Source of the DNA: Spirochaetia bacterium
GTDB lineage: Bacteria; Spirochaetota; Spirochaetia; SZUA-6; Bin103
Length of the DNA: 64,000 nt
Assembly: GCA_965198005.1 (NCBI GenBank)
Contig: CBDAOI010000004.1
Coordinates: 1,376,001 to 1,440,000 of the forward strand
Reading direction: 5' to 3'
The notes under the pieces are model-generated. The model saw nothing but the letters and a program-made list of their open reading frames with translations. It ran no database searches and was not told where the DNA came from. The position numbers and the translations under genes are program-made. Positions 851 through 61,394 of the stretch are shown here, one piece after another. The first letter of the stretch is position 1. The number at the start of each line of letters is the position of its first letter.

Positions 851-1159
851 TTTCGTGTAGGTCAGTAGGGGTGGGCTCCCTCTAGCGACCCATTTCTTTC
901 TTCAGATCCTGGCCAATCCAGAGGCGGGTGAAGACGGTGTTACTTTGACCGCCTCCCAACGTGAATTCACCGTTGTAACCCATGACCCACGGCTGGCTTG
1001 CCTGAAAATGTGGAGCCAGAGGACCCCATATCTGCCAGAACTTCTCTATCGCATACAGATCCAACTCTCCAACTATCCTGTTGCGCCCCTCGAGGGTGGA
1101 AGCGGCTCCGCCCGCTTCAAACAAGGCTTCATAAACCGGGTCGTTGACATTTGAGGTGT

Positions 1160-2279
1160 TCTGGGGTATCCATTTAACCGGACTAATGCTGTAGACTGTC
1201 GCCATGGAATACCCGCGCGGCGGCGCGCACTACCCGAGGTCGGTCGGAGAGTTCCAGGCTTGGTTCCAGAACGATGAGGACTGCTTGGACTACTTGGAGT
1301 GGCTGCGATGGCCGGCCGGCTTCGTGTGCTCGGCTTGTGGTCATCATGGGGAGTGGCGGCTGGGGGACGGTAGGCTCAGGTGCTCCGGGTGCGGCGGCCG
1401 CACTTCGGCGACCGCCGGCACGATTTTCGACCGGACACGAACGCCGCTGACGGTGTGGTTCACTGCCTGCTGGCTGTTCGCCACCGGTAAAGATGGGATT
1501 TCGGCGCTGAGCCTGAAGCGGACGCTGGAGATCGGCTCCTACCAGACGGCATGGACTATGCTGCATCGTCTGCGCGCGGTACTGGTACGTCCGGGGCGGG
1601 ATCGGCTGCGCGGGCTGGTGGAGGTAGATGAGACTTACATCGGCGGTGAGGAGCCGGGGCTGCGCGGCGGCCGGGCCGCGGGCAAGAAGGTACTGACCGG
1701 CGTAGCGGTCGAAGTCCGGGAGCCGAAAGGGATGGGCCGGTGTCGGATCGCACCGGTCCCGGATGCATCGGGGGCCTCGTTGCACCGGTTCGTGACGGAT
1801 CACGTCGAACCGGGTGCGACGGTCATCACCGACGGCTGGCAGGGCTATAGCGGACTGGAGCAGCTCGGCTATGCCCACGACCGGCGCAGCCAGCGGGCGG
1901 CTCGATTACGCGGAGAGGAGCCCGGCAAGCTGCTTCCCGCCGTGCACCAAGTTGCCTCGCTGGCCAAGCGGTGGCTGCTCGGCACCCATCAAGGCTCGGC
2001 GGAACACACGCACTTGGCCAGCTACCTCAATGAATTCGTGTTCCGCTTCAACCGTCGCCGTTCCCGGAGTCGCGGGATGGTATTCTTTCGGGTGCTAGAG
2101 CTCGCCGTCACGCACGCCCCAGTGCGCTACCAGGATCTCATCGCCAGCCATCGACCTCGGAAAGTTCCGCCAACACCGCCGCGGGGGCGCGGGCATCCGC
2201 CGAGCTTAGCGCGGCCTCCAGCGAACCGCCCGTGGAGAACAGCGAATCCAGCTAAGTCCGGTTAAATGGATACCCCAGA
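1160..2279 (+). mobile_element. IS1595-family insertion sequence
   Basis: Perfect 25-bp terminal inverted repeats TCTGGGGTATCCATTTAACCGGACT (1160-1184 / 2255-2279); 8-bp target duplication TGAGGTGT (1152-1159, 2280-2287). Confidence 0.95.
1204..2265 (+). CDS. IS1595 (ISXO2-like) transposase
   Basis: N-terminal Zn ribbon (CSAC, CSGC); catalytic motifs VEVDETYIGG, VITDG, YLNEFVFRFNRR. Confidence 0.95.
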   Translation: MEYPRGGAHYPRSVGEFQAWFQNDEDCLDYLEWLRWPAGFVCSACGHHGEWRLGDGRLRCSGCGGRTSATAGTIFDRTRTPLTVWFTACWLFATGKDGISALSLKRTLEIGSYQTAWTMLHRLRAVLVRPGRDRLRGLVEVDETYIGGEEPGLRGGRAAGKKVLTGVAVEVREPKGMGRCRIAPVPDASGASLHRFVTDHVEPGATVITDGWQGYSGLEQLGYAHDRRSQRAARLRGEEPGKLLPAVHQVASLAKRWLLGTHQGSAEHTHLASYLNEFVFRFNRRRSRSRGMVFFRVLELAVTHAPVRYQDLIASHRPRKVPPTPPRGRGHPPSLARPPANRPWRTANPAKSG

Positions 2280-3806
2280 TGAGGTGTTATGGTTTGCGGT
2301 CGACGTATAGCGAGCTTGCAATCCCAATGGGAACCACCTATTGGCCGCTTCCGAACTCATCATTTCGAAATCCCTATCACTTCTTCTAGCGACGAATTCG
2401 GCTACTGGCTGTACATCGATCTCCACATCAACGCCAATTTTTTTCCAGTATGAAACGGCTAATTCTACATAGTTCAAATCGCGCCGGTCGAGGTGCACCA
2501 ACTCGGTCTTGAATCTGATGCCGTCCGCTCCGCGAGGATATCCAGCCTCATCAAGCAACGCCTCGGCACCTTCCGGGTCGTAGTCGAATACCTTCTTGAC
2601 ATCTTCGGACCACTCTTCAAATGGGGTGATAATGTCTGCAAAAGTACGGTTTGCCTGCCCCTGGGGTGTCGTATCTGCATAACCTCTATAGTAGGCGTTG
2701 TTAATTTCGTCGAGATTCAATGCCTTCTGCATTGCTTTGCGCACCCTGATATCGGAAAAATATGGCAACTGAATGTTCATACCAAAAGCGTTATCCGACC
2801 GAGTGTAAAATGGCCATATCACGAGTTCGGGGTTGGTCCGCCGGAGGCTCTCCACCTGGTCGAGAGTCCTCATTTGAGATATCCCGATCGGACCTATGTA
2901 ATCAACCTGACCCGTGCGCAGTGCCGCCATATATGTTGCCACTTCGGGCATAATCAGGGCCCTTAACCTGTCAACATAGGGCAAGCGGTTCTCCGGGTAT
3001 TTTTCGTCGAAACCCCAGTAGTCGGGATTCTTGTCCCAGGTTACCGAGCTGCCCTCGGTCCAGTCAGTTAGCATCATGGGTCCGGTGCCGACCAGATTCC
3101 TCCAATCCGTAACGTCACCGTGTTCCTTGATTACCTCGGGAGGATATGTCCAGCCAAGCAGGCCGTCGAGGATACCAGCCAGTGCACCAAGGTTTAGCTG
3201 CTTCAGCTTCATAACAACCGTCCATCTGTCGGTGGCCGTTATCGATTCAAATTGCACACCTTGCAACGCAGTAACAAATTGGCTAGGTTCGGTGAAACCG
3301 CTGCCCAGACCCAGAAAACGGTGATAGTTATAGACGATGTCATCGGCAGTCAGCTCGCGACCGTTCATCGGTGGTTTATCATGCCAGTGAACGCCCTGGC
3401 GGACGTTGAAGACATAAGTCAGTGGGTCGGGGGTTTCCCAGCTTTCCGCCAGATGCCCTGTGAAGGCAGAGAAAGGAACGAATGCGAGCGCTTTAAAGTC
3501 AAATTCATCCCTGGGCGTTGCCCAGTCCGCGATGGCCAGCTTCTCCAAAACGCCAGCGACGTAGGTGGACGCCCACACACCATGGGGCACGACGTCAGGA
3601 CCCTCAGGCTCTTCTTTTTGGGCGAAGGTTATTGTCCCGCCGTACTGGGGCGCCACCACCACCTTGCCGGTGGAGGGGTCGGTGACGTACTTCTTGTCAG
3701 CGGCGGCTGCCGGCTCCTCTTCTGCGCCAGCGGCCCACAGGCCGGTTGCGGTCAGGGCGAGGACCAACGCAATCGCGAAGGTCATTCTGATTTTTACAAT
3801 GTTCAT

Positions 3807-3990
3807 ACGTTTCTCCGTATGTGGATTTTTCGAGAGTATTGCGAAGCGGATTGCCGCTCCCTGGCTACTCTCGCGCCCGCGTTGCAGGCGGCCAGACCGA
3901 GTCAAATCTGCATGTGCGCGCGGCGTGTAACTCAGCGGGCTCAGGCCGCGCGCAGGTGCGGTTCTTTGAGTACCATGTGCACCTCCTGTG
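3807..3990 (-). promoter_or_regulatory. Conserved SBP leader, copy 1 (SD + uORF MVLKEPHLRAA at 3976-3941 + structured RNA)
   Basis: Aligns with 21471-21664 and 34468-34662; AGGAGGTG SD before uORF. Confidence 0.8.
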
Positions 3991-20494: not shown

Positions 20495-20682
20495 TGTTGC
20501 CTCCTTGTGCGTGCGGGGAATGTAGGTGGTGGCGGCGGGGAAGTCAAAGCGCGAGCGGGCGAGCGCGGCTCGCGCGTGGTCAGAGGCGCCGTGGTGGCCA
20601 CCAAGGGGTGAGGCGCGCAAGTTCAGCCGATCGCAGAGCCGGGCGTGGCAGGGTGCACGAGGCCAGCGAGGCCAGAATCGCT

Positions 20683-21180
20683 GTTGACTTTTCTGAGTCG
20701 CCCGCGGAAGATGGTGATTCGGGTTGATCAGATGCGGATGGAGCGCCATGATGACAGTCAGCGCGGTGGCCGGGTTGGCGGTGACGTTCGGTGACCGCGG
20801 TGACCGCCGCGTCGTTGACAGGCGCGCCGCGCCTATGCTAGCGTGCCTCGCTTGGGTTTCGACGGATGCAGATGAAGCGCCATGATGGTCGGCGCAGTGG
20901 CCGGTTGGCCGTGATGACCTCCGATGGGTTGACAGGGTGGGCCGCGCCCATGCAAGCTTGCCTCGCTTGGGGTCGGGCGGAACGGTGATGACGCGTCATG
21001 ACGACAGTCAGCGCAATGGCCGGTTGGCGGTCACGTTCGGTGACCGCCGCGTCGTTGACAGGTTTCCGGCCGCATGCGACGGTTCACCGCTCGGGGTTGG
21101 ATGGATGAGGATGAAGCGCCGTGACGACAGTCAGCGCAGTGGCCGGTTGGCAGTGACGCAGCCGGTGCATCCCCTCCTGT
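20683..21180 (+). repeat. Tandem array A: four 114-131 bp units, each with TTGAC(A) and conserved core
   Basis: TTGAC at 20684, 20815, 20929, 21055; core GATGAAGCGCCATGATGACAGTCAGCGCAGTGGCCGGTTGGC. Confidence 0.88.
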
Positions 21181-21229
21181 CCCCCCCCCCCCCCCCCCCC
21201 AATTTCGAACCGACAAACAACTAACCGCT
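21181..21229 (+). repeat. C20 tract + conserved motif, copy 2
   Basis: C20 then AATTTCGAACCGACAAACAACTAACCGCT. Confidence 0.9.
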
Positions 21230-21470
21230 CCGGCTGATTGGCGCGTACGCGAAAGCGCGCACGCCGTTACCTTTACCACCGGCTCGGTCCATCGCCGAAC
21301 CGGGATGCAGACCGCCCGTGCCCTTCCCGTCGACTCGGGCCGTCGCGGATCCCCGCCCGCGACCGACTGCCAGCAAAACCCACCGCCGGCGTTGCCGGCC
21401 ATTCAGACTCGCTGCTGCGCCGACCACCGCCCCGCGTGGCGTTGTGACGCAGGGCACCCCGTGCCCCAGG

Positions 21471-21664
21471 AAGGAGGTGAAGATGATACTGAAAGAACCG
21501 CACGCGCGCGCGGCGTGAGCCCGGGTGAACCCGGATGAGTCACACGCTGCGCGCTTTGTGACTCGACTCAGACTGGCCGCCTGCGTTGCGGGCGCGAGAG
21601 TAGCCAGGCAGCGACAAGTCGCTACGCAATACTCTCAATAATTCGACATATTACGGAGATATGG
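21471..21664 (+). promoter_or_regulatory. Conserved SBP leader, copy 2 (uORF MILKEPHARAA at 21483-21518)
   Basis: AAGGAGGTGA SD; alternative stems; aligns with the two other copies. Confidence 0.8.
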
Positions 21665-23482
21665 ATGAATATTGTAATGATCACCAGGACTTTCGCGGTT
21701 GCGCTGGTCCTGGTCCTGACCGCAACCGGCCTCTGGGCCAGCGGTGCAGACGACAGCGACGAATCGGCAGCAGCCGCTACCGACAGAGAGACGGTGTTCG
21801 ATCCCGCCAGCGGCCTGACGTGGACGGCGCCAGAGTATGGCGGGACACTCAGTTGGGCCCATAAGCAGTTTCCTAAGAGTACTGACCCGCACATCGTTGG
21901 TGGCTGGGGACCTCACTTCATCAGTGGCGTCAATGAGAAGCTAGCCTACGGCGACTGGGCAGTATCCAGGGACAAGGTGGTTGAACTAGCCTGGACTTAT
22001 ACGGGCCCAGAGATGTACCGAGGGGCTCTGGCTGAAAGCTGGGAATTCCCCGACGCCACAACGGTGATCTTCCACATCCGCCAGGGCGTTCATTGGCATG
22101 ACAAGGCGCCGATGAACGGTCGGGAGCTGACTGCCGATGATGTCGTATTCAACTGGCACCGTTATTTGGGTCTGGGCGATTTCGCCGAAGACGGACCTTC
22201 CACGTTAGGTTATATGACGCAAGGTCTAGAGGAAGCATCGGTAACGGCCACCGACAAATGGACGGTCGAGTTCAAGCTGGCGAGGCCCAAACCCGATATC
22301 GAGTTTGCAATGACCCACAACGCAAACTATATACTAGCCCCCGAGGTAATCAAGGAACACGGAGACTATGCGGATTGGCGGAACGTGGTCGGCACCGGGC
22401 CCTATCGACTGACTGACCATGTCGAGGACACCTCGGCAACCTGGGAGAAGAATCCCAACTACTGGGGCTACGACGAAAAATTCCCGGACAACCGCCTGCC
22501 CTATATTGACACGTTAAGGTCCCTCCTTATAGCAGACCTTTCAGCACGTCTGGCGGCAATGCGCACGGGTAAGATTGATATGATAAGCAACACCGGCGAC
22601 GCTCATATATCCGAGATAGAACATATAGAGAGCCTCCAGGCTACCAACCCAGAAATCGAGGCCTGGCCCGTGTATCGCACTCCAATGGGCTCTTATTTGT
22701 ATGACCAGTCTCAGCCGGTGATGCAGGATGTCAATGTGCGCAAGGCACTGCAGATGTCCCAGGACCGAGAGACTATTTCGGCTGCCTTCTTTAAGGGTTG
22801 GGGAGATCCCGCACCTAATGGGTATATAAGTCAAGCTTCTACAGGGTATAGCTGGCCATATGAAGAGTGGCCCGAAGAGGTCAAGCGTGAGTATGAGTAT
22901 GACCCCGAAAGGGCAGAAGCGTTGCTTGATGCGGCTGGATATCCACGCGGCGACGACGGCTATAGATTCACGATCAAGATAGGCCATTTCGGGAGGTACG
23001 AACCGGAGTATACAGAAATCATCATGGGCTACTTCGACGCCATTGGCGTTAACAGCGAGATGGTTGTGGTTATGGACCCTGAGCTGCCACCTATCCTCGA
23101 GGCGGACACGTCCGAGTTCGCGTTGATTAGTTGGGTGACATATCCGCTAGCTGTCCCCGATACGTATGTATATTATATAGATAACCGCGACTATGGTGGT
23201 GTTGACTGGAGCAGGGCGAACGATCCGGAAATGGACGCCCTGCTGGCCGGCATGAGGAATGCTACCGAAGCGGAGGAGTGGCAAAGGTATCACCGACAGC
23301 TCGATGAGAAAACTGTACGGGAGCACTGGGGCCTGGTGAGAGCCAACTCCCCTATATTCGCCGTGAGCCAGCCGTGGGTCGAGGGTTATGCCGGTGAATG
23401 GAGTCTGGGATACTCTGAACGTAATACCCACTTTGCCCGCCTCTGGATTGATAGTGAGCTGAAGGAATCAATGGGTCATTAG
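21665..23482 (+). CDS. Family-5 ABC substrate-binding protein
   Basis: Signal peptide, LAESWE, RQGVHWHD, VGTGPY. Confidence 0.95.
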   Translation: MNIVMITRTFAVALVLVLTATGLWASGADDSDESAAAATDRETVFDPASGLTWTAPEYGGTLSWAHKQFPKSTDPHIVGGWGPHFISGVNEKLAYGDWAVSRDKVVELAWTYTGPEMYRGALAESWEFPDATTVIFHIRQGVHWHDKAPMNGRELTADDVVFNWHRYLGLGDFAEDGPSTLGYMTQGLEEASVTATDKWTVEFKLARPKPDIEFAMTHNANYILAPEVIKEHGDYADWRNVVGTGPYRLTDHVEDTSATWEKNPNYWGYDEKFPDNRLPYIDTLRSLLIADLSARLAAMRTGKIDMISNTGDAHISEIEHIESLQATNPEIEAWPVYRTPMGSYLYDQSQPVMQDVNVRKALQMSQDRETISAAFFKGWGDPAPNGYISQASTGYSWPYEEWPEEVKREYEYDPERAEALLDAAGYPRGDDGYRFTIKIGHFGRYEPEYTEIIMGYFDAIGVNSEMVVVMDPELPPILEADTSEFALISWVTYPLAVPDTYVYYIDNRDYGGVDWSRANDPEMDALLAGMRNATEAEEWQRYHRQLDEKTVREHWGLVRANSPIFAVSQPWVEGYAGEWSLGYSERNTHFARLWIDSELKESMGH

Positions 23483-23587: not shown

Positions 23588-24598
23588 ATGAGAGCCTACC
23601 TTATCAGGCGGTTATTGCTGATATTCCCCACCCTGTTCATATTGAGCATCGTAGTCTTTCTCTCGGTCCGCTTCATCCCCGGCGATGTAATAGACGTAAT
23701 GGTGGCCCAGATGGGAGGATGGTGGGCCGTGGGTGGCGATATAGACCGCGAAGCTCTTGAGCGCAGGCTGGGATTGGACGTGCCTGTGTACGTACAGTAC
23801 GGACGCTGGATAGGAGTGTTGCCAACCCCTGACTGGATTACCGGTGAGTCCCACTTTAGAGGTCTCCTCCAGGGCACCCTTGGCGAACCACTGATTGGCG
23901 GTTTTTCTACGATAGACGAGATGATAATGAGTAGATTGCCGGTAACCATTGAGCTTGGCGTTATGGCAATCGTAATCGGGCTAGTGATAGCCCTGCCAGT
24001 CGGCATCTACTCGGCGATTCGCCAGGATACGGCCACCGACTACCTAGGCCGCACCGTCGCCGTCATCGGCCTGGCAACGCCAAACTTCTGGCTGGGAGTC
24101 ATGGTCATGCTCTACCCGGCAATCTGGTGGGGCTGGTCGCCGTCGATGGAGTACATCCCTCTTGGCGAAGATCCGCTGGGGAATCTCGGGATGCTCATCA
24201 TTCCTGCTGTGATTCTGGGAACGGGCATGTCTGCAGCCACCATGCGGATGACGCGCACCATGATGCTGGAGGAGCTCAGGCAGGACTACGTCAGGACGGC
24301 ATGGTCCAAGGGTATCAAGGAAAGAGTGATTGTTATCAGACACGTCATCAAGAATGCATTCATCCCGATTCTTACGCTGATAGGCCTGCAGTTCCCCCTC
24401 CTGATAGGTGGCGCCGTCATCATGGAGAACATCTTCAACCTTCCGGGGATAGGTCGTCTGTTTATGGATGCCCTCGAAGGAAGAGACTACCCGGTAGTCT
24501 CCGGAATAAACCTGGTTTTCGCGACCCTAGTTATGCTTAGCATTGTACTTATCGACATGATCTATCCCTATTTGGATCCCAGGATCCGCTACAAGTGA
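23588..24598 (+). CDS. ABC permease DppB/OppB-like
   Basis: EAA-like loop DYVRTAWSKG, ENIFNLPGIG, RDYPVV, DPRIRY. Confidence 0.95.
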   Translation: MRAYLIRRLLLIFPTLFILSIVVFLSVRFIPGDVIDVMVAQMGGWWAVGGDIDREALERRLGLDVPVYVQYGRWIGVLPTPDWITGESHFRGLLQGTLGEPLIGGFSTIDEMIMSRLPVTIELGVMAIVIGLVIALPVGIYSAIRQDTATDYLGRTVAVIGLATPNFWLGVMVMLYPAIWWGWSPSMEYIPLGEDPLGNLGMLIIPAVILGTGMSAATMRMTRTMMLEELRQDYVRTAWSKGIKERVIVIRHVIKNAFIPILTLIGLQFPLLIGGAVIMENIFNLPGIGRLFMDALEGRDYPVVSGINLVFATLVMLSIVLIDMIYPYLDPRIRYK

Positions 24599-25566
24599 TG
24601 CCACAGGTACACACCGCTAAAGTGAGTGAGCCCAGGAGAAGTGGCGCGGTGGCTGTTTTCTTTATCAGGCTGTGGCGGGAGAAGCCACTGGGTATGGCCA
24701 GCGGAATTGTCATATTTCTAGTGCTGTTTGTGGCTTTATTCGGGGGTCAATTAGCCCCTTATAGATTTACCGAGATGAACCTGATAGACAGGATGCAGGG
24801 CTCATCAGTCCGGCATCTGATGGGTACCGACCAGATGGGGCGAGACGTTCTCAGCCGCGTTATATTCGGGGCCCGTATTTCGGTACTTGTCGGTCTGGCA
24901 GTGACCACGCTCAGTGTATTGATCAGTACGCTGATAGGCGGCATTTCAGGATTCGTTGGTGGTAGATTCGACATCATAGTGCAGAGAGTTGTCGATGCCT
25001 GGATTTGTTTCCCGGGACTGCTCCTATTGTTAACCCTGATGTCCATTGTGGGAAAGGGTGTGCCACAGATAATACTGGTCCTGGGGATATCAGGAGGCAT
25101 CGGCGGCTCAAGAGTAATCAGAGGCGCCGTTCTTGGCATTAAGGAGAATGTGTATTTTCAGACGGCGGAGGCTATTGGCAGCAGAAAATGGAGATCATTA
25201 GTCCGCCATGTCTTGCCCAACATCATGCCTGCCGTAATCATTTTATTCAGCACCAGCATAGGGGGCGTAATCATATCTTTGGCTTCTCTGAGCTTCCTCG
25301 GATACGGTCTGCCTCCCACGCTTCCTGACTGGGGAGGTCTGCTCAGTAGGGAGGGGCGTAAATACATGGAGCAGGCGCCATGGCTGGCTCTCTGGCCCGG
25401 TCTTTGTCTGACGGTAACCGTTTACAGTCTGAACATGTTCGGCGACGCAGCGCGTGACCTGCTGGACCCGAGGCTGAAGGGCGGCGTGGGGCAGCCCGGT
25501 GCCTATGGCACGAAGTCGGTCAAGAAAGCCAGGAAGAAGCTGGAGGCCAGGGACGAAACGCATTAG
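24595..25566 (+). CDS. ABC permease DppC/OppC-like
   Basis: HLMGTDQMGRD, RHVLPN, LSFLG, GDAARDLLDPR. Confidence 0.95.
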   Translation: MMPQVHTAKVSEPRRSGAVAVFFIRLWREKPLGMASGIVIFLVLFVALFGGQLAPYRFTEMNLIDRMQGSSVRHLMGTDQMGRDVLSRVIFGARISVLVGLAVTTLSVLISTLIGGISGFVGGRFDIIVQRVVDAWICFPGLLLLLTLMSIVGKGVPQIILVLGISGGIGGSRVIRGAVLGIKENVYFQTAEAIGSRKWRSLVRHVLPNIMPAVIILFSTSIGGVIISLASLSFLGYGLPPTLPDWGGLLSREGRKYMEQAPWLALWPGLCLTVTVYSLNMFGDAARDLLDPRLKGGVGQPGAYGTKSVKKARKKLEARDETH

Positions 25567-28463: not shown

Positions 28464-28910
28464 GTTGACAGGGTGGCCACGCCCACCCATAGCAAGCTTG
28501 CCTCGCCTGGGGTTCGACGGATCGATGATGACGCGCCATGACGACAGTCAGCGCAGTGGCCGGTGGCCGGTGATGTTCGGTGACGGCGGTGACGCGGTGA
28601 CGTCCGAGTCGTTGACAGGGTGGTCGCGCCCACGCTAGCATGCCTCGCTTGGGGCGACGGATGCCGATGAAGCGCCATGATGACAGTCAGCGCAGTGACG
28701 GGTTGCCGGTGACCTTCGCTTACCCCGGTGACCCCCACGAGTCGTTGACGGCGCGCCGCGCCTAGGCTAGCGTGCCTCACTTGGGGTTCGACGGATGGTC
28801 ATGAAGCGTCACGATGACAGGCAGCGCAGTGACCGGTTCGCTGTGACGCGACCGGTGCATCATACCCCCCCCCCCCCCCACTTTTTCGAACCGAGAAACA
28901 ACTAACCGCT
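28464..28910 (+). repeat. Tandem array B: three 133-147 bp units + C15 tract + conserved motif
   Basis: TTGAC at 28465, 28612, 28745; same core as array A; C15 at 28865-28879. Confidence 0.88.
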
Positions 28911-30000: not shown

Positions 30001-30500
30001 TCAGGAAGAAGGAGGTGCGGTGAAGCCGCTGCCCAACCCCAAAAGACGGTGAAAGTTATATTCGATATCTTGGGCCGTCAGCTCGCGGCCGTTCATCGGT
30101 GCCTTATTATGCCAGCGAACCCCTTCGCGTATTTTGAAGACTATCGTGGTGGCGTCCGGCGTTTCCCAGCTTTCCGCTAGTCGACCGGTAAGAACGGATT
30201 CGGGGAAGTAGCTGAAAGCACCGGTAAGGTCATACACGTCCCTGTCGATTCCCCAGTTGACCATGCCCAGCTTCTCGGCAACACCATCAACTTCCCCACC
30301 GAACAGCGGGTCAGTCGTCGGACTTTCCCGGTTGGCGAAGGTGAATGTCCCGCCGTACTCCGGCGCGGTCACCATCTTGCCGGTCGTCGGATCGAGCACC
30401 ATTTCCCTTTCGGCGGCGGACGCCGAGTCGTCTGGTTCGCTGCCGCCCCCCGCAAACGCAGCGGTCGCCACCAGCGCGAACGCCAGTGTGATCGATATCC
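30001..30500 (-). pseudogene. Truncated family-5 SBP N-terminus (no start, stops early)
   Basis: MVLDPTTGKMVTAPEYGG, LAESWETPD, REGVRWHNKAPMNGRELTA. Confidence 0.85.
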
Positions 30501-32655: not shown

Positions 32656-34467
32656 CTAACGACCCATCTCTGCCTTCAGCTCCTGGTCAATCCAGACGCG
32701 GGCCAACAAGGCCCTAAATTGATGATTTCCCATATGCGCTTCGCCGTTATACCCTTTGACCCACGGCTGACTCACTTGATACTGTGGAGAATCGGGGCCC
32801 CATATCATCCAGTGCTTCCCTATTGCATACTGATCTGCCTCTCGGAACAACCTCTGGTACTCTTCGAAGTCACTAGTAGCTCGAAGGGTATCAATCATGG
32901 CATCATAATCCGGGTCGCTGACCGCGGCGGCATTCCACGGGGAGCCTGTATAGAAGACAGACACTCGACCCTCACCAAAGTAGTGCGCGCCTGAACTCCC
33001 CGAGCGAAGAAGCTCAAAAGAAGCTCTTGAACCTTTCGCTAGCCACTCAGCGGCTGGCAGTACCCGAATCTCTAGATCAATACCAATCTCGCGCCAATAG
33101 AAGGCCACCAATTCGTAATAGTCAACAGAGTTCCATGGGCCAAGGATCACGGAGGTCTTGAATCGAATGCCGTCCGGACCGCGCGGTAACCCGGCCTCGT
33201 CAAGGAGATTGTCGGCGCCTTCTGTATCGTACATATAGCCCTTCTTCAACTCTTCGGGCCACTCATCAAACGGGACGAACCACCCTGTGAGAGATTCTCC
33301 TACCTGACCGTGAGGTGTCGTATCTGCACGACCATGAAAGAAGGTATCGTTAATTGTCTCCAGATCCAGTGCCATCTGCATAGCCTTTCGCACCCTGATG
33401 TCATCAAGCGGCGGCACATTAACGTTCACTCCCAAAGCGAAGTCCGAGCGGGAAAAATAGGGCCATTGTGCTATTTCCGGGTTGGTATTTGCGAGACTCA
33501 TCACCGGGTCTATAGTCCGTATCATGCCGCCACCGGTAGCGTAACCCAAATAGTCAATCTTGCCCGAGCGCAGTGCCGCCAGACGGGTTGCCTCTTCTTG
33601 CATCAACAAGTCTATTATCTTGTCAACATAGGGCAGGCGGTTCTCCGGGTACTTTTCGTCGAAGCCCCAGTAGTTCGGGTTCCTTTCAAAGGTTAGAGAG
33701 CTTCCCTCGACATAGTCGGTCAGCATAAACGGCCCCGTGCCGACCAGGTTCCTCCAATCTTTGGCATCGCCGTGTTGCTTTATTACATCCGGGGGATACA
33801 TCCAAAGGGTATTGTAATCGAGGATCTGCCTCAACGCAAAAAAGTGTGGCCGCTCCAGCTTAAAGACAACCGTCCACTTGTCGCTGGCCGCTATCGATTC
33901 GATTGCCACCTGGCCCAGAGCGCCAATTGCTGGGCTAGGTTCGGTGAAGCCGCTGCCCAGACCCAATAGACGGTGATAGTTATATACCATGTCATCAGCA
34001 GTAAACTCCCGACCGTTCATTGGTGCCTTATCGTGCCAGTGAACGCCCCTGCGGATGTTGAGAACGATCGTTGTATCGTCGGGCGTTTCCCAGGTTTCAG
34101 CCAATGCTCCTCTTAAAACCCAGGCAGGTGTGTCGGCACTAGTTGTCGGCCATTCGTTCCTATCTATAGCCCAGTCCACTATAGTTGGCTTCTCTAGAAC
34201 GCCATTTTTTTCGGCGAGACCGAAATTGTGACCCCACCAACTGTCACTGTGCTCCAACACCGCCGAAGCCCAGCCGGTGGTTAATGTCCCGCCATATCGT
34301 GGGGCCTCTACCATCTTGCCGGTTCCGGGGTCTAGCACCATCTCTTTCGCGGCGGCGGATGCGGAATCGTCGCTGTCGCTGCCGCCGGCGGCCCAGAGGC
34401 CGGCTGCGGTCAGAATCAGGACCAACGCAACCGCGAAGGTCATTCTAATACTTACAATATATTTCAT
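32656..34467 (-). CDS. Family-5 ABC substrate-binding protein
   Basis: MKYIVSIRMTFAVAL..., RRGVHWHDKAPMNG, VGTGPF. Confidence 0.95.
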   Translation of the reverse strand: MKYIVSIRMTFAVALVLILTAAGLWAAGGSDSDDSASAAAKEMVLDPGTGKMVEAPRYGGTLTTGWASAVLEHSDSWWGHNFGLAEKNGVLEKPTIVDWAIDRNEWPTTSADTPAWVLRGALAETWETPDDTTIVLNIRRGVHWHDKAPMNGREFTADDMVYNYHRLLGLGSGFTEPSPAIGALGQVAIESIAASDKWTVVFKLERPHFFALRQILDYNTLWMYPPDVIKQHGDAKDWRNLVGTGPFMLTDYVEGSSLTFERNPNYWGFDEKYPENRLPYVDKIIDLLMQEEATRLAALRSGKIDYLGYATGGGMIRTIDPVMSLANTNPEIAQWPYFSRSDFALGVNVNVPPLDDIRVRKAMQMALDLETINDTFFHGRADTTPHGQVGESLTGWFVPFDEWPEELKKGYMYDTEGADNLLDEAGLPRGPDGIRFKTSVILGPWNSVDYYELVAFYWREIGIDLEIRVLPAAEWLAKGSRASFELLRSGSSGAHYFGEGRVSVFYTGSPWNAAAVSDPDYDAMIDTLRATSDFEEYQRLFREADQYAIGKHWMIWGPDSPQYQVSQPWVKGYNGEAHMGNHQFRALLARVWIDQELKAEMGR

Positions 34468-34662
34468 GGTTCTCTCCATAAAATGTGTTCTCGAGAGTAT
34501 TGCGGGGCGGATTGCCGCTCCCTGGCTACTCTCAGGCGCGCAACGCTTGCTGCCAGTCTGAGTCAAATTCTCGGAAGCGCGCGGCGTGTGACTCATCCGG
34601 GTTTACCCCGGCTCACGCCGCGCGCGCCTATGGCTCTTTGAGTATCATTTTGCACCCCCTTT
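34468..34662 (-). promoter_or_regulatory. Conserved SBP leader, copy 3 (uORF MILKEP*ARAA* at 34648-34613)
   Basis: AGGGGGTG SD; same stems as the other copies. Confidence 0.8.
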
Positions 34663-34966: not shown

Positions 34967-35260
34967 GGTAGTCGGGTAGTCGGGTAGTCGGGTAGTCGGG
35001 GGCGTTAGCGCTAGCCGGCCGTTGGGATGGATGGCGTCAGTCACCATACGCGGACGAGCGTAGCCGACCGCGCGCCTTTGTGCAAGCGGCCACCTAACTC
35101 GCTGCGCCAGCGCTAGCCGGCGGCTGTGCTGGCGAGTGTCAGTCACCATACGCGGACAAGCGTAGCCGGCCGCGCGCCTTTGTGCAAGCGGCCACCTAAC
35201 TCGCTGCGCCAGCGCTAGCCGGCGGGTGGGCTGGATGGCTTCGGTGACCATGCGTCGACG
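34967..35260. repeat. (GGTAGTCG)x4 microsatellite followed by ~2.5 tandem 102-bp units
   Basis: 8-mer at 34967-34998; AGCGCTAGCCGG at 35007, 35109, 35211. Confidence 0.92.
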
Positions 35261-60262: not shown

Positions 60263-61394
60263 ATGGCGTTTTCCGTTGAGGACGTTGGCGATCTGGTTCG
60301 TATTCTCGAAGAGAAGCCCGAGTGGCGTTCCGAACTCCGCCGGGTGGTGCTCAGCGACCACTGGTCGGCGCTGCATGAGCAGATCGCGGAGTCGCGTTTG
60401 GCTACCGAGCGGCGTATCGACGCGATCAACGCGGAGATTGCTGAGTTGCGCGCGGCCACGGAGCGGCACACGGCGGAGATCGCGGAGTTGCGTGCCGCCA
60501 CCGAGCGGCACACGGCGGAGGCGGAGTTGCGTGCGCACGAGCGGCACACGGCGGAGATCGCGGAGTTGCGTGCCGCCACCGAGCGGCACACGGCGGAGAT
60601 CGCGGAGTTGCGTGCCGCCACCGAGCGGCACACGGCGGAGATCGCGGAGTTGCGTGCCGCCACCGAGCGGCACACGGCGGAGATCGCGGAGTTGCGTGCC
60701 GCCACCGAGCGGCACACGGCGGAGATCGCGGAGTTGCGTGCCGCCACCGAGCGGCACACGGCGGAGATCGCGGAGTTGCGTGCCGCCACCGAGCGGCACA
60801 CGGAGATCGCGGAGCGTCGCGGAGATCGCGGAGTTGCGTGCCGCCACCGAGCGGCACACGGAGCAGATCGCGGAGTTGCGTGCCGCCACCGAGCGACACA
60901 CGGAGCAGATCGCGAGACTGACCCGATCCGTACACTCCTTGTCGAACGACGTAGGGGATCTCAAGGGGATGGGCCTGGAGCAGCGCTATCGACGGATGGC
61001 GTACGCCTACTTCGGCCGATTCATCCGCCGCACGCGTGTGATGCAGACGGAGCGATTTGCTGCGCTGGTCGAGGACGCGATAACTCAGGGGGTGCTGTCC
61101 GACGACGAGGCCGACGAGTTGTCCTGGGTTGACTTGGTGGTCAGCGGGAAGCGTCGCGACACGGGTAACGAAGTGTTCCTGGTGGCGGAGATCTCCTGGA
61201 CCGTTGCTCCCCACGACGTGGAGCGAGCTGCTCGGCGCGCGAGCCTGTTTGCTCGAATTCGATCCCCGGTCCTGGCCGTGGCAGCCGGGAAATTCGTGAC
61301 GGAGGAAGCCGCTCTCAGGGCACGGGACGAGAACGTGTGGGTGTTCTTCGAAGGAACGGTCCACCCACCCGACAGTACGGCAATCGGCCCGTAA
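60263..61394 (+). CDS. Coiled-coil 14-aa repeat protein with C-terminal nuclease-like domain; frameshift within repeats
   Basis: MAFSVEDVGDLVRILEEKPEWR; (AEIAELRAATERHT)n; DLVV..AEISW..DVERA in second frame. Confidence 0.8.
60431..60915 (+). repeat. 42-bp coding tandem repeat (~11-12 units, some with deletions)
   Basis: GCGGAGATCGCGGAGTTGCGTGCCGCCACCGAGCGGCACACG. Confidence 0.95.

Follow-up and report, generated by a model that had tools for sequence, protein, structure and literature searches.

A modular RNA leader with a mini-ORF and a putative pseudoknot in front of ABC importer operons of a Spirochaetia bacterium

The leader at 21471-21664 and its copies

The window analyzed in this work is a 64,000 nt stretch of a Spirochaetia bacterium (assembly GCA_965198005.1, contig CBDAOI010000004.1, positions 1,376,001 to 1,440,000), in which a leader at 21471-21664 on the forward strand precedes a solute-binding protein (SBP) gene. 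This gene (21665-23482, +; 605 aa) heads an ATP-binding cassette (ABC) importer operon with permease genes at 23588-24598 and 24595-25566. A first-pass annotation of the window had seen one and the same leader in front of three full-length SBP genes, and a three-way alignment of the leaders of 21665(+), 3806(-) and 34467(-), with 82% mean column identity, shows that they are indeed one element, the Shine-Dalgarno (SD) sequences, upstream open reading frames (uORFs, here also called mini-ORFs) and stems being found again at the same positions. The second leader (3807-3990, -; uORF MVLKEPHLRAA at 3976-3941) is devoid of the hairpin inside helix H1 described below and is followed by an SBP gene at 2262-3806 (-). 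The third (34468-34662, -; uORF MILKEP*ARAA at 34648-34613) has a TAG at codon 7 and is followed by an SBP gene at 32656-34467 (-). All three downstream genes belong to PF00496 (SBP_bac_5), and the strong SD, the three peptides and the 134-146 nt spacers reported earlier all stand (146, 134 and 145 nt from uORF to SBP ATG for 21665, 3806 and 34467, respectively). Only 21665 and 34467 are full-length (603-605 aa), however; the product of 3806 is C-terminally short, with 514 aa which align to residues 1-468 of the 605-aa paralogue. Single-sequence folds of the three leaders are more stable than those of shuffled sequences (z = -2.3, -4.1 and -5.7).

Conservation among the copies begins sharply at the consensus SD of the mini-ORF (AGGAGGTG, 21472-21479; all features in this paragraph are on the forward strand). 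The mini-ORF MILKEPHARAA with its stop codon occupies 21483-21518, its coding-like part being codons 1 to 6 (21483-21500), which are followed by a variable codon 7 (21501-21503). Codons 8 to 11 supply the 5' arm of helix H1 (21506-21554), composed of 12 bp with one G-U pair between GCGCGCGGCGTG (21506-21517) and CACGCTGCGCGC (21543-21554) and enclosing an optional hairpin (21520-21534). A loop-to-downstream pairing of GAGTCA (21537-21542) with TGACTC (21559-21564), spanning 21537-21564, crosses H1, and in the window copy there is an 8-bp stem of GAGTCACA (21537-21544) with TGTGACTC (21557-21564). Further downstream lie the two stems of a putative pseudoknot: S1, CTGGC (21573-21577) with GCCAG (21603-21607), spans hairpin H2 (21578-21594), and S2, GAGAGTA (21596-21602) with TACTCTC (21630-21636), encloses the 3' strand of S1 and a hairpin at 21610-21623. 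Most copies close S2 with a C-G pair, in place of which the window copy has C21595 opposite A21637. The leader ends in a variable A-rich linker (21638-21664) which contains the SBP ribosome-binding site GGAGA (21655-21659).

In the source genome (4.89 Mb, 66% G+C, 4 contigs) BLAST identified 87 pieces of the leader, far more than chance would give, and tblastn ~180 SBP-like places; for 84 of the 87 pieces such a place follows within 1.5 kb in the same orientation. A covariance model (R1, alignment A2), for which 31 copies of type A, the type to which the window copy belongs, were used, gave 96 matches at E ≤ 0.01, about 85 of which are real copies, the weakest being palindromic matches on the GC helix; it matched the second leader of the window at 3829-3990 (160.6 bits) and the third at 34490-34662 (186 bits). 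A model of the pseudoknot domain (R2, alignment A4) found 116 sites, 111 of them at most 400 nt upstream of an SBP-like place and again on the same strand, and a permease gene follows within 3 kb in 71 of the 74 SBP genes bearing a type A leader. The element is the operon leader of a hugely expanded ABC importer family and stands in front of more than 100 operons; the enrichment upstream of SBP genes, for which the first-pass annotation had suggested a covariance-model search, is thereby confirmed. A mobile element, such as a miniature inverted-repeat transposable element (MITE), was considered and rejected on the grounds of this same-strand association and of the lack of any blastn match in plasmids or phages.

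Matches to R1 and R2 were confined to the window's own genus, in which 7 of 10 other genomes carried them (copy numbers per genome in these relatives are lower bounds); R1 had no match in 15 other genera of the order (30 genomes) and R2 none in 26 other genera (81 genomes). Among species-representative genomes a pattern scan identified 36 stretches, all of them in metagenome-assembled genomes of Spirochaetia bacterium (4 assemblies) or Candidatus Tectimicrobiota bacterium (1 assembly). Presence of the leader tracks the expansion of the SBP family, as two genomes with the leader have at least 128 and 36 SBP matches and three without it have 7, 7 and 1, these genomes being kin and as such non-independent. 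No R1 match was found, with filters off, at the best SBP loci of two leaderless species. Exact-pattern scans of Joint Genome Institute (JGI) metagenome contigs, which miss diverged copies, returned 0 and 1 stretch, and the single stretch (L153) contained no leader by R1 with filters off. The bacteria which carry the leader are an uncultured group, apparently associated with sponges.

Mini-ORF, predicted fold and the two leader types

The mini-ORF starts with ATG in 68 of the 73 near-full type A copies, behind a consensus SD, and 36 of the 73 encode exactly MILKEPHARAA. Codon 7 specifies His, Tyr or Trp or is a stop, the latter in 13 of the 73 copies, which read M(I/T)LKEP-stop and in which the nucleotides 3' of the stop are unaltered. 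Substitutions in the mini-ORF were counted across 146 units from eight genomes, duplicates included; AGGAGG or AGGGGG was found in 103 of these units, and in codons 3 to 6 it is the third positions that vary most. Codons 2 to 6 showed 111 synonymous versus 51 non-synonymous copy-changes, where the possible single changes are 10 versus 35, and codons 8 to 11 showed 32 versus 87, where 12 versus 24 are possible; the copies being non-independent, these counts serve as a signature rather than as a statistical test. The signature suggests a constraint on the first six codons (MILKEP) at the level of the peptide or, failing that, of the codons, and the ARAA tail reads plainly as constrained in its capacity as the 5' arm of H1, which starts right after codon 7. 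The 11-codon peptide of the first-pass annotation does not hold up, given that the coding signature is limited to codons 1 to 6 and that codon 7 can be a stop. Composed of MILKEP and the variable codon 7, the mini-ORF has no repeated codon and no cluster for one regulating amino acid, and proline is the last sense codon before the stop in a subset of copies. The mini-ORF is presumably translated.

The fold of type A leaders was assessed on an alignment of 93 copies, 84 of them distinct (A3), to which two crossing pairings were added; this alignment was fitted to nested helices, so that its counts lean towards the model. RNAalifold and single-sequence folds agree on H1 with its optional inner hairpin, on the small hairpin H2 and on GAGAGUA/UACUCUC enclosing a hairpin, and in some copies they add a hairpin over the SBP ribosome-binding site; in the single-sequence folds of the three window leaders the A-rich linker is unpaired. 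Overall 96.9% of cells pair, and double changes occur in 19 of 45 pairs, compared with 4.6 +/- 1.5 in shuffles and 4-13 in slid controls. H1 is paired in 99% of cells among the distinct copies and its one-sided changes are mostly from G-C to G-U, from which it follows that the fold belongs to the sense RNA strand. Series of G-C, G-U and A-U pairs are present in H2 and in the inner hairpin (47, 19 and 5 in the latter), and S1 and S2 are paired in 96.3% and 93.8%, respectively. Even the most diverged type A copies of other species keep the primary sequence, and 43 of the 60 type A copies measured have 24-25 nt between S2 and the SBP ATG (28 nt in the window copy).

The pairing of GAGUCA with UGACUC is kept in 95-99%, with a double change at one pair (2 sequences) at which 13 cells are unpaired; this weakly suggests a pseudoknot, or else a hairpin which would form when H1 is open. 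The first-pass annotation had set this stem in competition with H1. Both stems are present, but the overlap is peculiar to the window copy, the 8-bp stem of which shares 2 nt with H1, and in all other copies GAGTCA/TGACTC has no nucleotide in common with H1. In two type A leaders of another genome, L069:7167-7311 and L087:4814-4957, a short AAAGAGA stretch stands in place of S2 and the inner hairpin; these leaders are natural deletion variants of the pseudoknot.

Among 128 full-length SBP places, 66 have a type A leader and 62 do not, and 42 of these 62 are linked by upstream similarity. The leaders of these 42, of type B, start with a consensus SD (AAAGGAGG) and a tiny ORF (MxPKTGYD, MKSPYD, MQN, VKL or a bare start-stop), continuing with variable hairpins and then, in this order, CCCUCGC, a hairpin, CGAGAGUR, GCGAGGG, a conserved loop, YACUCUCG, an A-rich linker and the SBP start. 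Type A has the same order, with CUGGC pairing with the GCCAG directly after GAGAGUA, and a different S1 sequence. The only module common to the two types is this 3' pseudoknot domain, the loop nucleotides of which are conserved (GG...CGCAA in type A, GCCGGCAGU in type B). S1 exists in type B as CCCTCGC/GCGAGGG, CCTTCGC/GCGAAGG and CCCTCGTC/GACGAGGG (as RNA CCCUCGUC/GACGAGGG) and S2 as ..UA/UA.., ..UG/CA.., ..CA/UG.. and GGGAGUA/UACUCCC, and three S2 pairs change from A-U to G-C (12 and 4 sequences) or from U-A to C-G (6 sequences). In an alignment of 36 type B domains, 35 of them distinct and from 7 genomes (A6; S1 was left out of the model), 92.7% of cells pair and double changes occur in 10 of 22 pairs (5.6 +/- 1.1 in shuffles, 0-3 when slid); S2 is paired in 95-97% and S1, though outside the model, in 95.6%. 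As in type A, one-sided changes are mostly from G-C to G-U.

S1 and S2 share no nucleotides and are contiguous on one strand without a spacer, which makes an H-type pseudoknot with stacked stems the economical reading. The order of strands that characterizes such a pseudoknot, namely S1-5', S2-5', S1-3', S2-3', holds in both types, and the two stems would form simultaneously. The earlier claim that CTGGC/GCCAG and GAGAGTA/TACTCTC are mutually exclusive fails at this point, as they exclude each other only in a nested drawing and behave as a pseudoknot with covariation in type B. The domain also presents what is looked for in a riboswitch, i.e., a conserved structured domain with covariation, in the form of compensatory changes in S1 and S2 and of its many genome sites.

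Conservation, cassette exchange and upstream regions

In a profile of 66 full-length leader-bearing paralogues the leader core, from the SD of the mini-ORF to the last pseudoknot strand, has a mean pairwise identity of 0.8-0.98 per 10 columns, which drops to 0.49 in the linker and climbs again over the SBP SD and ATG. The SBPs have an amino-acid identity of 0.47, with 0.62, 0.65 and 0.55 at codon positions 1, 2 and 3 and intermediate values in the signal-peptide codons, and the SBP SD region exists in at least three unrelated versions. Leaders depart from the orthology of the genes behind them: in three of four unambiguous cross-species pairs the leader of the orthologue ranks 27th to 53rd of 60 in similarity, and at loci L079, L084, L073 and L094 the gene bodies show ~100% nucleotide identity to source-genome paralogues, but signal-peptide starts, linkers, leaders and upstream flanks differ. 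The upstream flanks of the copies sort into several shared classes, and leader variants are common to several species and not homogenised within each. This pattern indicates that 5' cassettes are exchanged among paralogues by recombination, and the nearly identical gene bodies with differing 5' regions in different species imply that co-occurring species have recently exchanged genes or 5' cassettes.

Similarity among the copies reaches ~900 nt upstream. In front of the 21665 operon there is a long non-coding region (20750-21470, +), possibly a member of the same functional unit, which is composed of ~3.4 tandem units of ~125 nt (20750-21160; the units contain TTGACA-N18-TAGCGT boxes), 20 consecutive C ~280 nt ahead of the mini-ORF (21181-21200) and a segment common to subsets of copies (21204-21470). 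Tandem units of ~125-134 nt are also found at 28605-28847; in both places every unit contains a tiny ORF (MKRHDD...) and a box, TTGACA-N18-TAGCGT/TAGCAT, that resembles a promoter. The sequence GTTGACAGG occurs 102 times genome-wide, 51 of these in the 2 kb in front of 23 of the 90 type A leaders, and no clear -35/-10 was visible by eye in the upstream classes. Runs of 9-28 C lie within 1.2 kb upstream of 43 of the 90 type A leaders, the genome having 121 C/G runs of at least 9, and are candidates for slipped-strand phase variation or Rho loading.

Several further features of the window were recorded. A 102-nt tandem repeat of 2.4 copies (35007-35251) upstream of the 34467(-) leader may be the counterpart of the promoter-like units of the 21665 copy, and a 42-nt tandem repeat of 9.4 copies with 94% match is present at 60431-60914, together with flanking related arrays. 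Two leaderless SBP gene fragments, at 885-1154(-) (residues 516-605 of the 605-aa paralogue) and at 30004-30411(-) (residues 40-180), look like remnants of family turnover. A group II intron domain (RF02005, 4905-5129, 169.5 bits in the Rfam scan), with a reverse-transcriptase ORF (PF00078, 5137-6714) after it, begins ~930 nt ahead of the 3976 mini-ORF and is on the strand opposite to it.

Possible working of the leader

The first-pass annotation did not recognise the leader as a described family, and this still applies: the Rfam 15 scan of the window at gathering thresholds returned only the group II intron, an E-value scan of 21400-21720 only asX1 (E = 6.2) and that of five type B loci nothing at E ≤ 1, no known mobile element matched, and literature searches on leader peptides, solute-binding proteins, sponge symbionts and minimal ORFs yielded no description of the element in the titles and abstract beginnings of the papers found. 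Its parts are of known kinds, such as leader mini-ORFs, pseudoknots near ribosome-binding sites and joint control of binding proteins, and it is the combination, the copy number and the cassette exchange that are new. The leader resembles the trp, his and leu attenuators and pyrBI in that part of its ORF is at the same time the first strand of a strong hairpin, the formation of which a ribosome can block, but it has no run of regulatory codons, no overlapping 1:2/2:3/3:4 alternatives and no consistent U-tract. A classical attenuator was rejected although the mini-ORF has its own SD and start, in view of the missing regulatory codon cluster, the absence of strand-sharing hairpins (2 nt in the window copy aside) and the lack of a terminator. 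For most copies H1 itself was rejected as an intrinsic terminator, with at least 5 U in the 8 nt after H1 in 12 of 70 copies and at most 2 in 37 of 70, and with no terminator found by a scan of the leader on the + strand. Features also seen in erm/cat translational attenuation are the very short peptide and a ribosome paused near the base of a hairpin, but here no conserved hairpin hides the downstream ribosome-binding site and the main start lies 134-146 nt past the uORF stop; SD sequestration of this type was rejected, as conservation is lowest in the linker and ribosome-binding site, which exist in at least three unrelated versions and have 4 bp of complementarity to the preceding stem. Comparable with the phage T4 gene 32 mRNA and the cryIIIA STAB-SD are the 5' position of the pseudoknot, the A/U-rich single strand behind it, which contains the ribosome-binding site, and the strong SD far upstream; our element differs from them in that no cognate binding protein is known and that its copies stand in front of more than 100 operons. 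As with GcvB of enterics and AbcR of Rhizobiales, many ABC binding-protein mRNAs would be under one post-transcriptional signal; those systems use short target motifs and a trans RNA, whereas here there is a ~170-nt cis element and no trans RNA was found.

The leader at 21471-21664 is one copy, belonging to type A of two types, of a genus-restricted modular 5' leader of ABC importer operons. Tentatively, and at somewhat less than an even chance, we infer that the loading of ribosomes onto the mini-ORF determines what becomes of the long leader and that the pseudoknot acts on initiation of the SBP. The first module consists of the consensus SD and the mini-ORF, with MILKEP as its meaningful part, running into the 12-bp GC helix H1, which a ribosome loaded on the mini-ORF would have to open. 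Such a ribosome, sitting on a long and otherwise untranslated leader, would decide what share of full-length operon mRNA survives premature, probably Rho-type, termination or decay, and expression of the whole transporter family would in this way be tied to translational status. The second module would be the H-type pseudoknot, with S1 stacked on S2 and each loop carrying a hairpin; the A-rich linker behind it is unstructured and contains the SBP ribosome-binding site. At its fixed distance from the start codon the pseudoknot would set SBP translation initiation as a structural platform or as the docking site of a shared factor. The E. coli tna leader and the uORF-dependent Rho termination of Mycobacterium tuberculosis, the latter likewise in a high-GC organism, have in common with our leader a short ORF in a long leader, on which a ribosome would be needed for downstream expression; the structured RNA is downstream of the uORF here and upstream of it in the mycobacterial riboswitch cases. 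A precedent is another high-GC bacterium, in which translated uORFs are reported to shape Rho termination (bioRxiv 10.1101/2022.06.01.494293).

A number of observations weigh against this proposal. Covariation, which the first-pass annotation had proposed to look for, was found for S1 and S2 in type B, but inside type A none of Watson-Crick kind stands out: among the 84 distinct type A copies there was no compensatory change in H1 and no convincing one in GAGUCA/UGACUC, and a mutual-information scan within type A gave no Watson-Crick signal in the core, its output being made up chiefly of linked variants of the linker and ribosome-binding region. A start codon is missing behind the SD of some type B copies, which means that the peptide is not always needed, and with no U-tract after H1 in most copies a classical intrinsic attenuator is unlikely. 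Unlike the tna and M. tuberculosis systems, the leader encodes no peptide of similar length that could sense an inducer, no Rho site was identified in it, and 47 of the 90 copies have no C run upstream. A promoter scan of 20600-21750 found no sigma-70 site. The leader-like contigs present in four metatranscriptome runs of three studies are short and add up paralogues; neither ends nor strand nor level can be read from them. There are also species of the same genus with few SBP genes and without the leader. Finally, exchange of cassettes among paralogues explains part of the extreme identity of type A, and that part needs no function.

The pseudoknot could instead be the functional core, either as a riboswitch-like aptamer or as the nucleation site of a shared RNA-binding repressor or activator which spreads over the linker and ribosome-binding site, in which case there would be one global signal and the mini-ORF would be secondary. 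Its position as the sole module common to both types, with both stems kept by covariation, fixed spacing to the AUG, conserved loops and 116 sites, is in favor of this possibility, but the ligand or protein partner is hypothetical, there is no Rfam relative, no alternative pairing overlapping the SBP ribosome-binding site was seen in the folds, the linker is the least conserved part and two of the 93 aligned copies keep all the rest without S2 and the inner hairpin; we consider it unlikely. It is also doubtful that the leader is a constitutive expression cassette, in which a ribosome would be retained on the strong SD close to the 5' end and the compact pseudoknot would keep out 5' exonucleases or endonucleases, to give a stable mRNA with an open ribosome-binding site and high, unregulated SBP output. 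This would fit with the SD being the best conserved upstream feature, even next to a one-codon ORF or no start, with an A-rich linker that is unpaired in folds, with leader-like sequence in the metatranscriptome contigs and with peptide/nickel SBPs having, in a sponge metaproteome, the largest number of proteins of any function (K02035, 140 proteins; PMC6081418). The amino-acid-level constraint on MILKEP and the tight juxtaposition of codon 7 and H1 are left unexplained by such a cassette, and the contigs cannot show RNA ends or levels.

The two-state switch of the first-pass annotation, in which translation of the uORF picks H1 versus the GAGUCA hairpin and CUGGC/GCCAG versus GAGAGUA/UACUCUC and the freed CUCUC masks the SBP SD, has become very improbable. 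All four stems exist and are conserved, nested minimum free energy folds alternate S1 and S2, and the 3' end of the uORF is the 5' arm of H1; however, the competing stems share no nucleotides apart from the 2 nt in the window copy, type B retains both S1 and S2 although its S1 sequence is another one, as a pseudoknot predicts, and the pairing of CTCTC with the SBP SD amounts to 4 bp (UCUC/GAGA) in a region that differs between copies, with at least three unrelated SD contexts. What survives of the attenuator or riboswitch-like element first suggested for this SBP family is a real structured sense-strand leader specific to the family, with a uORF behind a consensus SD; the two-state switch, the H1 terminator and the anti-SD pairing do not. 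Little credence can be given either to a neutral homology block, which gene conversion and the exchange of cassettes among the more than 100 paralogues would for the most part keep alike and which would have little function of its own. Three of the four cross-species orthologue pairs do have near-identical bodies with different leaders, linkers and signal-peptide starts, and flank classes are shared, but conversion alone yields no third-position periodicity in codons 2 to 6, it does not explain the G-U-only one-sided changes, the compensatory pairs or the fixed AUG spacing, the same pseudoknot topology is kept in the sequence-divergent type B, and variants are shared between species and not homogenised within them. 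A broader possibility, which we regard as rather unlikely, is that the leader forms the core of an exchangeable 5' control cassette (promoter-like tandem units, hypermutable C run, mini-ORF, pseudoknot and signal-peptide start) that is moved by recombination among the more than 100 transporter operons, within and between co-resident species; this would permit re-wiring and C-run phase variation of importer expression, all under one global signal via the shared pseudoknot.

In a sponge microbiome, the binding proteins of peptide/nickel-type ABC importers are reported to rank among the most abundant proteins (PMC6081418), and here a single lineage has more than 100 such operons. A shared and undescribed RNA leader before most of these operons would be the main handle on the regulation of nutrient uptake in an uncultured symbiont. 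The leader also offers a compact pseudoknot class with natural replication, in hundreds of copies and two sequence types, and a natural series of mini-ORFs, from start-stop to 11 codons, as a test bed for ribosome loading on the leaders of high-GC operons. The swapping of cassettes, in turn, shows that the regulatory regions of a large paralogue family can evolve apart from its genes.

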